Assembly (NCBI GenBank): GCA_951406725.2
Contig: OX597832.1
Span: 39,680,001 to 39,744,000 of the forward strand
Reading direction: 5' to 3'
Length of the DNA stretch: 64,000 nucleotides
Source: Octopus vulgaris
Taxonomy: Eukaryota
Below, in pieces: positions 17,392-51,600 of this stretch. Each line of letters opens with the position of its first letter. Within the stretch, counting starts at the first letter, position 1. Under the pieces are notes generated by a model, which made no database searches, had not been told where the DNA came from, and saw nothing but the letters and a program-made list of their open reading frames with translations. A program made the position numbers and the translations under genes.

Positions 17392-17594
17392 CATTATTTT
17401 TTTAACTGCATGTTTGTTACAATCACTTGCCGAGACACACCAAGCGTCCTAGGGCGAGTGAAGCATAAGAGATGCTACAGTTTGACTGAAAGTTTGAGGA
17501 GATGAAGTGGCAGAGGCAGTAGCGAAATATCTTCATGTACATTATTTACATTGTTTACAATTGACGGATATTTGTCCTCATCTTGTTTGTTGTT

Positions 17595-17640
17595 AACACA
17601 ACGTTTCGGCTGATATACCCTCCAGCCTTCATCAGGTGTT
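17595..17640 (-). ncRNA. Minimal type I hammerhead ribozyme with intact core
   Basis: Minus strand: aacac CTGATGA a ggctgg agggtata tcagcc GAAAC GTT gtgtt. Stem I is aacac/gtgtt, stem II is ggctgg/tcagcc, and stem III is the palindrome AACGTT. Confidence 0.85.
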
Positions 17641-17778
17641 TTGGGGAAATTTCGAACCTGGGTTCTCATTCCTAAGGCAGGCATTTTTTCGATGTTGTTG
17701 TTGTTGTTGTTATTATCATAATTATTATTTCGGAATCTTGGGGTTAGTAGCCTGCGCTCTTAACCACTACTCTATATG

Positions 17779-17820
17779 CACCTGATGAAGGCTGGAGGGT
17801 ATATCAGCCAAAACGTTGTG
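17779..17820 (+). ncRNA. Second copy of the P3 hammerhead, with G12-to-A substitution (probably inactive)
   Basis: cac CTGATGA aggctggagggtatatcagcc AAAAC GTT gtg. Confidence 0.7.
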
Positions 17821-19405
17821 TTAACAACAAACACGATGAGGACAAATATCCGTCAATTGTAAATAATGTAAATAATGTAAATAATTCCTAATTTCTTATA
17901 TATAAAAGTATATCTTCATGTAATACAACACAGCCATTTAAACTGATGGGTTTTCCTAAGGATGTAGGAAGTACTTGTCAGCACAATCTTTTGGATTTCT
18001 CTGAGACATGGTCCTCCTGGGATATTATCTAGATATTTTTGACATCCCTTCTTTATCGTACCTAGGGCACCTACAATAACAGGAACAGTTCTCGCTTTAA
18101 GATGCCACACTTTTTGTATTTCAATTTCCAGGTCCTTGTATTCACTTAATTTGTCAAATTCTGTTACAGGTGTATTTTTATCAGTGCGAAAACTTACGTC
18201 TATTAGTCTACAAGTATTTTCCTCTCCGTCTTTAATTACTATGTCTGGTCGCTTAGCCTGGATCTTTCTGTCGGTGTTGACTGGAAAATCCCAGAGGATA
18301 GTGACATTTTTACCTTCAATGACTGGCTCAAGATGATGTTCGTACTTGTAAGCAGGAGTGCTGAATTTGTAGTGTAGAGATTAACCCTAATCTCTACGAG
18401 AGGGTAGACAGTAGGGTAGGACACCCTACTGTCCTACCCTATCGTAGAGATTTTTTATTCGTTTGGTGTCAGCACAGAACATCCCTAGACGAAATGGTCT
18501 ACTGTTTCGTCAAATGTATCGTAGAATCTCAATTTAGGGTCACAACCGTTTTGAAGAACGTTAGCCTGATAGTTTTTGGGAAGCAAGCTTTGATCTTGTG
18601 CCGCCAATATGAAACCTTCAATCTCTGCTTTCAGTCCTGGATTGTTTCTAGGTCTACATCAGTATTTCAGCTTCGAAGTATATATTGTCCATGCAGAGGC
18701 TTCTGTTTCTACCACTCCTTAATATTCTGCCCGTGTCTGTTCGTTCATTTTTTTTTTTTTTGCAGCCTATTTGATCCGTTTTGCTCATTTGGTGACAGTG
18801 GTTTCAGTGTACCCAGGACTACATGCATTATCCAATATATAATTTTCTTTTTTTAAGGCAGTGACGTTTGCTTTGAAGAAGACTTGACTGTTGTTTCTAG
18901 CGACCATGTAAAGGTTCCTTCCTTGAATGTTATTCTAACACCGATGATACCAGTTGCTTTTCGATGAGAAAAAATAGCTCGAAGCTTAGTGAGAGGAATA
19001 CAAACAAACCGCTGATATCAGTGCCACCACCACCATTACCTCTATCACTGTCATCATCATCACTTCCACCAGCATCATCATCATCAACGACCAACATTAG
19101 TATTAACACTAGCATCATTACTACCACCACCACCACCACCACCATCATGACTCAATACATACAACTTATATAACCGAGTCAATAAACATAAAAACAATTT
19201 AAAGCCGTATTTCGAAGATAATATTTCCAAATTCTTTCATCTGTCTTTAGATAACGGTTTTTTGACGAGAGCGAGGGAGAAAAAAACTCACATGCATGTT
19301 GAAAAACTATCGACGACAGAAGAGTTAGAGTCTATGCGGAGTCATGTGATAACCCGTATTTAAAAATCAATAACTGCCTGATATCCTACTGACACAACAT
19401 ATAGG

Positions 19406-51277: not shown

Positions 51278-51600
51278 TAGGAATGGTCATTTTGCCAGTT
51301 TAGCTAATAAAAACACACGCACTATATATTTGGTGTTACTTTGCTTCAGCGTTATTCATTTTTTACATTAATCTTAATCTTATTTCGGCCATAGTTCTTT
51401 CGTCACACTCATGTGACCTCCTCAGTGGTCCTTTGCTTTCTTCTTTCTTATTTGTGTGTCTCTCCTTACTAACGGTCAGCCAATTCCTATTGCATGTGTC
51501 TTCATTTGCGCATGCGTATACCTCTATGTGTGTCTATGTTTAGTTAGTGTGTGTGTGGGGGGAAGTGCCTGTAATATTTGTATCTCCTGTTTATATACGT
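51278..51600 (-). mobile_element. Family P1 pLTR copy
   Basis: Aligns to 9805-10015. Confidence 0.85.
51387..51431 (-). ncRNA. Minimal hammerhead ribozyme with intact core (family P1)
   Basis: Minus strand: ggacca CTGAGGA g gtcac atgagt gtgac GAAA g aa CTA tggcc. Confidence 0.75.

Follow-up and report, generated by a model that had tools for sequence, protein, structure and literature searches.

Penelope-like elements (PLEs) are described, in the available text of the published reports, as leaving inverted truncated copies with an optional tail (PMC8557442), and pairs of hammerhead ribozymes lying on opposite strands 100-700 bp apart have already been traced to truncated PLEs (PMC4209133). 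For PAc, the Poseidon element of Anolis, two-strand cleavage and two internal priming sites were reported (PMC11167929). The only PLE promoter that was mapped in vivo is TATA-less and LINE-like, overlaps an intron and implies transcription by Pol II (PMC2377424). Type I hammerheads that originate from the pLTR of PLEs are also found in animal non-LTR retrozymes, which form head-to-tail arrays that make circular RNA (PMC7229834, bioRxiv 10.64898/2026.07.22.740005). The SINE-like schistosome elements Sm-alpha and Sj-alpha combine a Pol III-type promoter with a downstream type I hammerhead, occur at high copy number and are described as non-autonomous tandem repeats without a coding parent (PMC6765202, PMC2770079, PMC8490949). 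Finally, the TRIMp3 elements Cassandra, Helenus and Ajax, which are non-autonomous LTR elements, carry a small-RNA-derived Pol III promoter in their terminal repeat; this promoter was proposed to arise by SINE insertion, and the autonomous partners of TRIMp3 were argued to need Pol II (PMC10886601).

The locus analyzed here matches the PLEs in the form of its insertion, which is already known; its unusual part is a tRNA-derived head inside the pLTR of a coding PLE. In the window, i.e. the whole stretch of 64,000 nucleotides of Octopus vulgaris DNA that was analyzed, the initial annotation had pointed out a 370-bp insertion with a 13-bp target-site duplication, inverted-repeat ends of about 100 bp and two outward-facing hammerheads, which splits a LINE. 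All of these features were confirmed. The insert (17540-17909) lies inside 13-bp direct repeats, and the 13-mer has only two matches in the window compared to 0.02 expected. The inverted arms (17535-17638 and 17779-17882) span 104 nt and are 96% complementary, and the last 5 nt of the left duplication also fit the tail repeat of the element, which represents junction microhomology. All seven other copies of the host LINE contain the 13-mer region once and lack the insert; BLAST aligned across the left flank in six of them, while the seventh is truncated and was matched by eye near the insertion site. The LINE stop codon (17918-17916, minus strand) falls within the duplicated target. The host LINE is presumably a member of the R4/Dong group ('R4-like'), a label based on a PD-(D/E)xK-type motif, and no match was obtained in Pfam or PDB. 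A nested hairpin of 19-nt and 12-nt inverted repeats is located at 18389-18452, where the open frame of the LINE ends, and is perhaps a small MITE-like insertion.

Coordinates of the features in and around the insertion (positions within the window)
Feature	Position	Strand	Basis
Host LINE 3' UTR, beyond the insertion	17400..17526	-	directly follows the ORF in other LINE copies
Left target-site duplication, 13 bp	17527..17539	+	single copy in 7/7 other LINE copies
Left arm, pLTR copy, head +3 to 'short' 3' end (~+255)	17540..17779	-	alignment to family reference
Minimal type I hammerhead, intact core, predicted cut 17600/17599	17595..17640	-	motif and fold
(AAT/AAC)n tract, belongs to family pLTR	17693..17729	-	family-reference alignment
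tRNA-Arg(ACG)-derived head, +3..+52; A box 17774-17764	17730..17779	-	family-reference and tRNA alignments
Right arm, pLTR copy, ~+162 to 'long' 3' end	17779..17909	+	alignment to family reference
Second minimal hammerhead, G12A at 17810 (CpG site)	17779..17822	+	motif, family-reference alignment
Optional PLE 'tail' extension, one arm only	17883..17909	+	family-reference alignment
Right target-site duplication, contains host LINE stop codon	17910..17922	+	repeat match, translation
Host LINE ORF 3' end, restriction-like endonuclease motif	17919..18380	-	translation; 2371 genome candidates

Alignment to the family reference resolves the 370-bp insertion into two truncated pLTR copies joined head to head, which abut with an overlap of 1 nt. 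The hammerhead of the left arm retains the core sequences CUGAUGA (17635-17629) and GAAA and a GUU cleavage triplet. The core of the right arm has been altered, and as G12 sits in a CpG, ordinary CpG decay is the likely cause of the G12A change. Both are minimal motifs without helix III, and since they reside on opposite strands, no single transcript contains both in sense. The 44-nt hammerhead stretch has 951 exact matches in the genome. A minimal type I hammerhead is present in the pLTR of the family by motif and predicted fold, and Rfam reported a hammerhead neither for the insertion nor for 10 loci whose heads are intact. The missing helix III, a palindromic 15.2-16.2 segment and an extra base before stem II are shared with metazoan PLE hammerheads; the ribozyme itself is thus the same, and the available text of that study does not mention a tRNA head (PMC4209133). 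About one quarter of the copies carry a T/A variant at +169 (core position 7), which is common to both arms of pairs and marks subfamilies. A weak hammerhead-like pattern match near 51425 (minus strand) is unrelated to the Penelope-like family.

The insertion is routine for its Penelope-like family. For the left arm, 3173 candidates were counted in the genome (2.8 Gb), and 40 of them were scored. The element was present in 3 of 20 arbitrary 10-kb stretches, which extrapolates to some 40,000 insertions (Poisson range from about 9,000 to 120,000). Among 90 loci chosen on the hammerhead alone, 50 contained head-to-head pairs, and 38 of these 50 combined one long and one short 3' end. Flanking words of at least 10 nt (10-15 nt) were shared in 20 of the 50 head-to-head loci compared to 3 of 500 mismatched pairs, three of the 20 words being simple repeats. 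Both-strand cleavage by the PLE protein accounts for two outward arms, according to the available text on PAc. The protein would cut both strands with a stagger and so generate the target duplication, as deduced from that system (PMC11167929), and reverse transcription primed at either of two internal sites would yield long and short 3' ends that both face outward. An element with terminal inverted repeats, such as a MITE, was rejected, as there are no fixed terminal inverted repeats and the inner ends of the arms range from -108 to +247. A non-LTR retrozyme was rejected as well: the family resembles these in its type I hammerhead and PLE pLTR origin, but 89 of the 90 loci are single or head-to-head (the remaining one is tail-to-tail) and head-to-tail short arrays of the retrozyme kind did not stand out in the BLAST maps of the loci. 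The words 'tRNA', 'Pol III' and 'promoter' do not occur in the available text of the retrozyme preprint (bioRxiv 10.64898/2026.07.22.740005).

The minus-strand stretch from 17779 to 17730 that the initial annotation had likened to a tRNA proved to be real and represents positions +3 to +52 of a family head. This head aligns without gaps to a genomic tRNA-Arg(ACG) with 47 of 73 identical positions (z=12.5 against 200 shuffles), with the homology starting precisely at +1. A comparison with 51 different tRNA sequences of the genome, which cover 11 isotype-anticodon classes and not all isotypes, gave tRNA-Arg(ACG) as the best fit, closely followed by Arg(TCG). The family head contains A and B boxes. 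The B box is absent at this locus due to a 23-nt deletion between 17730 and 17729, whereas the wider family does possess it: an intact B-box motif was found in 19 of 40 loci selected on the head. Given its start at +3 and the loss of the B box, this copy is likely to be a dead product. ARAGORN did not identify a tRNA in the window, and neither the Rfam tRNA model nor ARAGORN matched the insertion or 10 loci with intact heads; both also missed a neighbouring SINE head in locus L018, which indicates low sensitivity. A cloverleaf fold of the head was not obtained. Tandem clusters of tRNA-Arg genes are located at C2:211.89-211.91 Mb, C20:5.23 Mb and C1:130.86-130.90 Mb, with a spacing of about 206 bp (C2) and 450/680 bp (C20).

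The hammerhead region followed downstream in 32 of the 40 head-selected loci. This co-occurrence across the family, together with the 3173 arm candidates, leaves next to no credence for a one-off template switch at 17540-17909 in which a piece of tRNA was fused with a Penelope tail, the chance event that had been named as the outcome that would undo the original proposal; nothing but the missing B box speaks for it.

Several arm matches extended upstream into an open frame. A search with this frame returned 150 scored matches, of which 30 loci were examined, and the layout of the element was found to be ORF, stop codon, spacer, tRNA head with A and B boxes, (AAT)n, body, hammerhead and tail. 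In 27 of 30 loci selected on the ORF C-terminus, one of which is the locus of the query itself, part or all of the head directly follows the stop codon as judged by eye, and the head starts 32 nt past the first base of this codon. In tandem copies the tail continues straight into the ORF N-terminus, and a direct pLTR is located immediately 5' of it in 49 of 70 N-terminal loci. Head and hammerhead are therefore the 3' UTR/pLTR of a coding Penelope-like element. The earlier proposal of a Penelope reverse transcriptase as the mobilizing enzyme is borne out, and that of an independent SINE/retrozyme hybrid was not sustained.

RVT_1 scored above the cut-off in 2 of 5 frames scanned. Pfam gave no direct GIY-YIG match on three C-terminal frames; the ORF C-terminus is 33% identical (E=1e-37) to protein P0024 across the Pfam GIY-YIG stretch of the latter. 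Homologues with a single ORF of 507-929 amino acids display one architecture across the 120 listed, one octopus locus (L108) is near full length, and all 30 loci returned with a distant PLE protein as query belong to this family, so that no second PLE family was found among them. Every PLE feature that could be tested was present. Domain order and motifs suggest an assignment to Penelope/Poseidon.

An intron may exist near the start, as a GT..AG candidate was seen by eye in the tail repeats, but the unspliced frame is open too and no such joint occurs among the 15 joints listed out of 54. The ORF frame extends without interruption from an ATG that precedes the hammerhead, across the ribozyme and the 9-nt tail repeats, to the coding body (pLTR +130 to the ORF start; window 17674-17540, minus strand). 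A related protein that is 54% identical over the RT region (P0005) starts with a similar peptide, which suggests that the hammerhead is probably coding as well, as in PAc. As far as the available text allows comparison, the octopus element resembles PAc and Penelope of D. virilis in its single ORF with RT and C-terminal GIY-YIG-type domain (PMC11167929, PMC2377424), in a pLTR hammerhead overlapping the ORF start, in tandem and inverted truncated copies and in the optional tail at one end. It differs from both in that its pLTR contains a tRNA-derived head with A and B boxes and displays a sharp pile-up of 5' ends, and this head is unlike the LINE-like, TATA-less promoter with an intron of Penelope (PMC2377424). 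Nine distant loci related to the element were found in metagenome contigs. One of the four that were inspected (L251) has a 3' hammerhead and a T-rich UTR without A and B boxes, and the other three were uninformative.

The 5' ends of the copies were mapped relative to the head. Among 92 arms that bear a hammerhead, 33 extend as far as +9. Of these 33, 27 stop between -13 and +9, whereas the truncation rate of the neighbouring region predicts 14% (p=3e-18). One group of ends lies exactly at +1 and a larger group at -7 to -5. Ordinary truncation is common too: in 15 of 48 arms the end lies within the head, and in many it is located further 3'. The hammerhead cut site does not generate a clear pile-up (5 of 49 ends at +195 to +202), and most of these five ends reach upstream past the cut. 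The spacer, which the coding element has between stop codon and head, was detected in only 6 of the 40 head-selected loci, and genome counts of 24-mers amounted to 2733 for the head versus 699 for the spacer. Corrected for the match rates where both are present (9 of 47 for the head, 11 of 47 for the spacer), about 14,000 heads face about 3,000 spacers, an approximately fivefold excess.

Type 2 Pol III promoters direct transcription from a site shortly before the A box, which is followed by the B box. A pile-up 7-14 nt before an A box and then a B box fits this arrangement. Our preferred reading, to which we assign a probability of roughly 0.6, is that the head acts as a Pol III promoter and that its short transcripts serve as templates for the enzyme encoded by the element. 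The position of the copy ends (-13 to +9) would then reflect the transcription start 7-14 nt before the A box, and Pol III transcripts from pLTRs would be the templates of the about 14,000 SINE-like heads. The A and B boxes are not better conserved than their surroundings (4.5-4.9% versus 4-5.6% non-CpG divergence); equal divergence is expected of dead copies and thus lends no support to the Pol III reading. The CpG of the B box is retained more often in short arms (62 of 75) than in ORF-linked arms (32 of 55, p=0.003), a contrast that was left unused because short arms are younger and were picked on sequence.

The pile-up could also be an artefact of reverse transcription, with the tRNA piece as a passive relic that never recruits Pol III. 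A palindrome at -6 to +5 lies where the ends pile up and could by itself be sufficient to produce them through fold-back; in a variant of this explanation, the enzyme stalls on a long RNA at the imperfect hairpin of -13 to +10, for which -7.1 kcal/mol was calculated. Many junctions are mirror images centred on the palindrome, and another palindrome 3' of the hammerhead forms the junction in locus L365. Nevertheless, the cDNA hairpin from -6 is weak (-1.3 kcal/mol), many copies start at +1 to +3 beside unrelated flanks (L050, L153, L186 and L194), and in 4 of 5 pLTRs that lie upstream of an ORF the sequence continues through the head (p=0.012 compared to 27 of 33). This read-through argues against an obligatory stop of the reverse transcriptase at the head, a contrast that comprises five loci in which the upstream pLTR may stem from a separate insertion. 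We regard the artefact as unlikely. Under the Pol III reading, the palindrome would instead let the finished cDNA end fold back, which may account for the frequent mirror junctions. The spacer before the head (-13 to +10, e.g. in L062 and L064) is an imperfect mirror of the first 10 nt of the head, which gives the impression that a fold-back insertion had captured the head itself.

RNase P cuts tRNA precursors at +1. A defined RNA 5' end could accordingly arise without Pol III, through RNase P cleavage at this position or a Pol II start in the pLTR that happens to coincide with the head. One group of ends is found precisely at the RNase P position, and PLE starts were located in the pLTR in the available text of two studies (PMC2377424, PMC8557442). 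The larger group of ends is situated upstream of the RNase P site, and the head lacks a cloverleaf fold and is missed by the Rfam tRNA model, all of which speaks against this explanation. Such an origin of the ends is considered distinctly unlikely, and a Pol III start remains the preferred reading.

Short copies that begin at the head are about five times as frequent as ORF-linked ones and look like SINEs, and the available text on schistosome Sm-alpha (PMC6765202, PMC2770079) provides a precedent for an independent non-autonomous hybrid of SINE and retrozyme that borrows only tail and enzyme from Penelope. The sequence variants of the arms point in another direction. The ORF-linked arms (63) and the short arms (79) have non-CpG variants at +64, +169 and +238 in common, and these positions also tend to be identical within a pair. 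No diagnostic variant separated short from ORF-linked arms at the non-CpG positions +64, +160, +169 and +238; position +254 in the tail repeat does differ (p=0.03). The shared variants and the agreement within pairs suggest that short copies derive from the same sources as long copies. In addition, the head is also part of the coding element, and the RT of PAc needs RNA beyond the tail, inside the ORF, according to the available text (PMC11167929), which solo short copies lack. A hybrid of this kind is therefore highly improbable, and a tRNA-derived SINE with its own lineage was rejected on the same grounds of shared variants and a head within a coding element. With Pol III transcription from the pLTR, the SINE-like heads would be made from the element's own copies without a separate SINE lineage. 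If RNA beyond the tail is needed as in PAc, transcripts across the junction from pLTR to ORF would serve as templates, and synthesis primed in the upstream pLTR would produce copies that end at the start site by run-off.

A further possibility, which we find rather doubtful, is that the autonomous element is itself transcribed by Pol III, the head of the upstream pLTR giving rise to a 2.6-kb T4-free, uncapped and translated RNA in addition to the SINE-like offspring. The sense majority sequence contains no T4 run in 2652 nt; this depletion is not significant, as 61 and 172 of 1000 shuffles also lacked T4 and G4 is absent too. No RNA records matched the ORF N-terminus, the only query used. In contigs of three probable RNA runs, the proportions of head, hammerhead and ORF were about those of a presumed DNA run, which is uninformative on Pol III. 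If true, a protein-coding retrotransposon would depend on Pol III, and a Penelope element could give rise directly to a SINE or Sm-alpha-like repeat.

Promoters of PLEs have been mapped in very few cases and are taken to be Pol II promoters. Under the preferred reading of a Pol III head, the about 14,000 copies that begin at the captured head would constitute a natural record of PLE transcript starts and suggest a route by which SINE-like hammerhead repeats such as Sm-alpha arise from PLEs. The family also implies that some repeats annotated as SINEs in the octopus genome are PLE ends. Octopus tRNA-derived retroposons were reportedly described by Ohshima and Okada in 1994. It is possible that the short form already has an entry as a SINE, for example among OK, OR1 and OR2 or in Repbase; OR2 is classed as a CORE-SINE in the available text of PMC4758252. 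With Sm-alpha and Sj-alpha the family shares the order of a Pol III-type promoter and a type I hammerhead at high copy number; in octopus, however, this module is part of a coding element, and the short copies are single or head-to-head, unlike the tandem Sm-alpha. With TRIMp3 it shares a small-RNA-derived promoter in the terminal repeat, but here the autonomous element itself bears the head. Searches of openly accessible full texts, and term searches within PLE and retrozyme papers, revealed no autonomous PLE with a tRNA-derived head.

The 5' end lies within the (AAT)n tract (+75 to +88) in 21 of the 92 arms (examples are L045, L052, L054, L055, L057, L142, L145, L156, L164, L223 and L244). 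Some of these are joined to the (AAT)n tails of other repeats, which resemble LINE 3' ends, and the ends probably result from annealing to microsatellites in the target.
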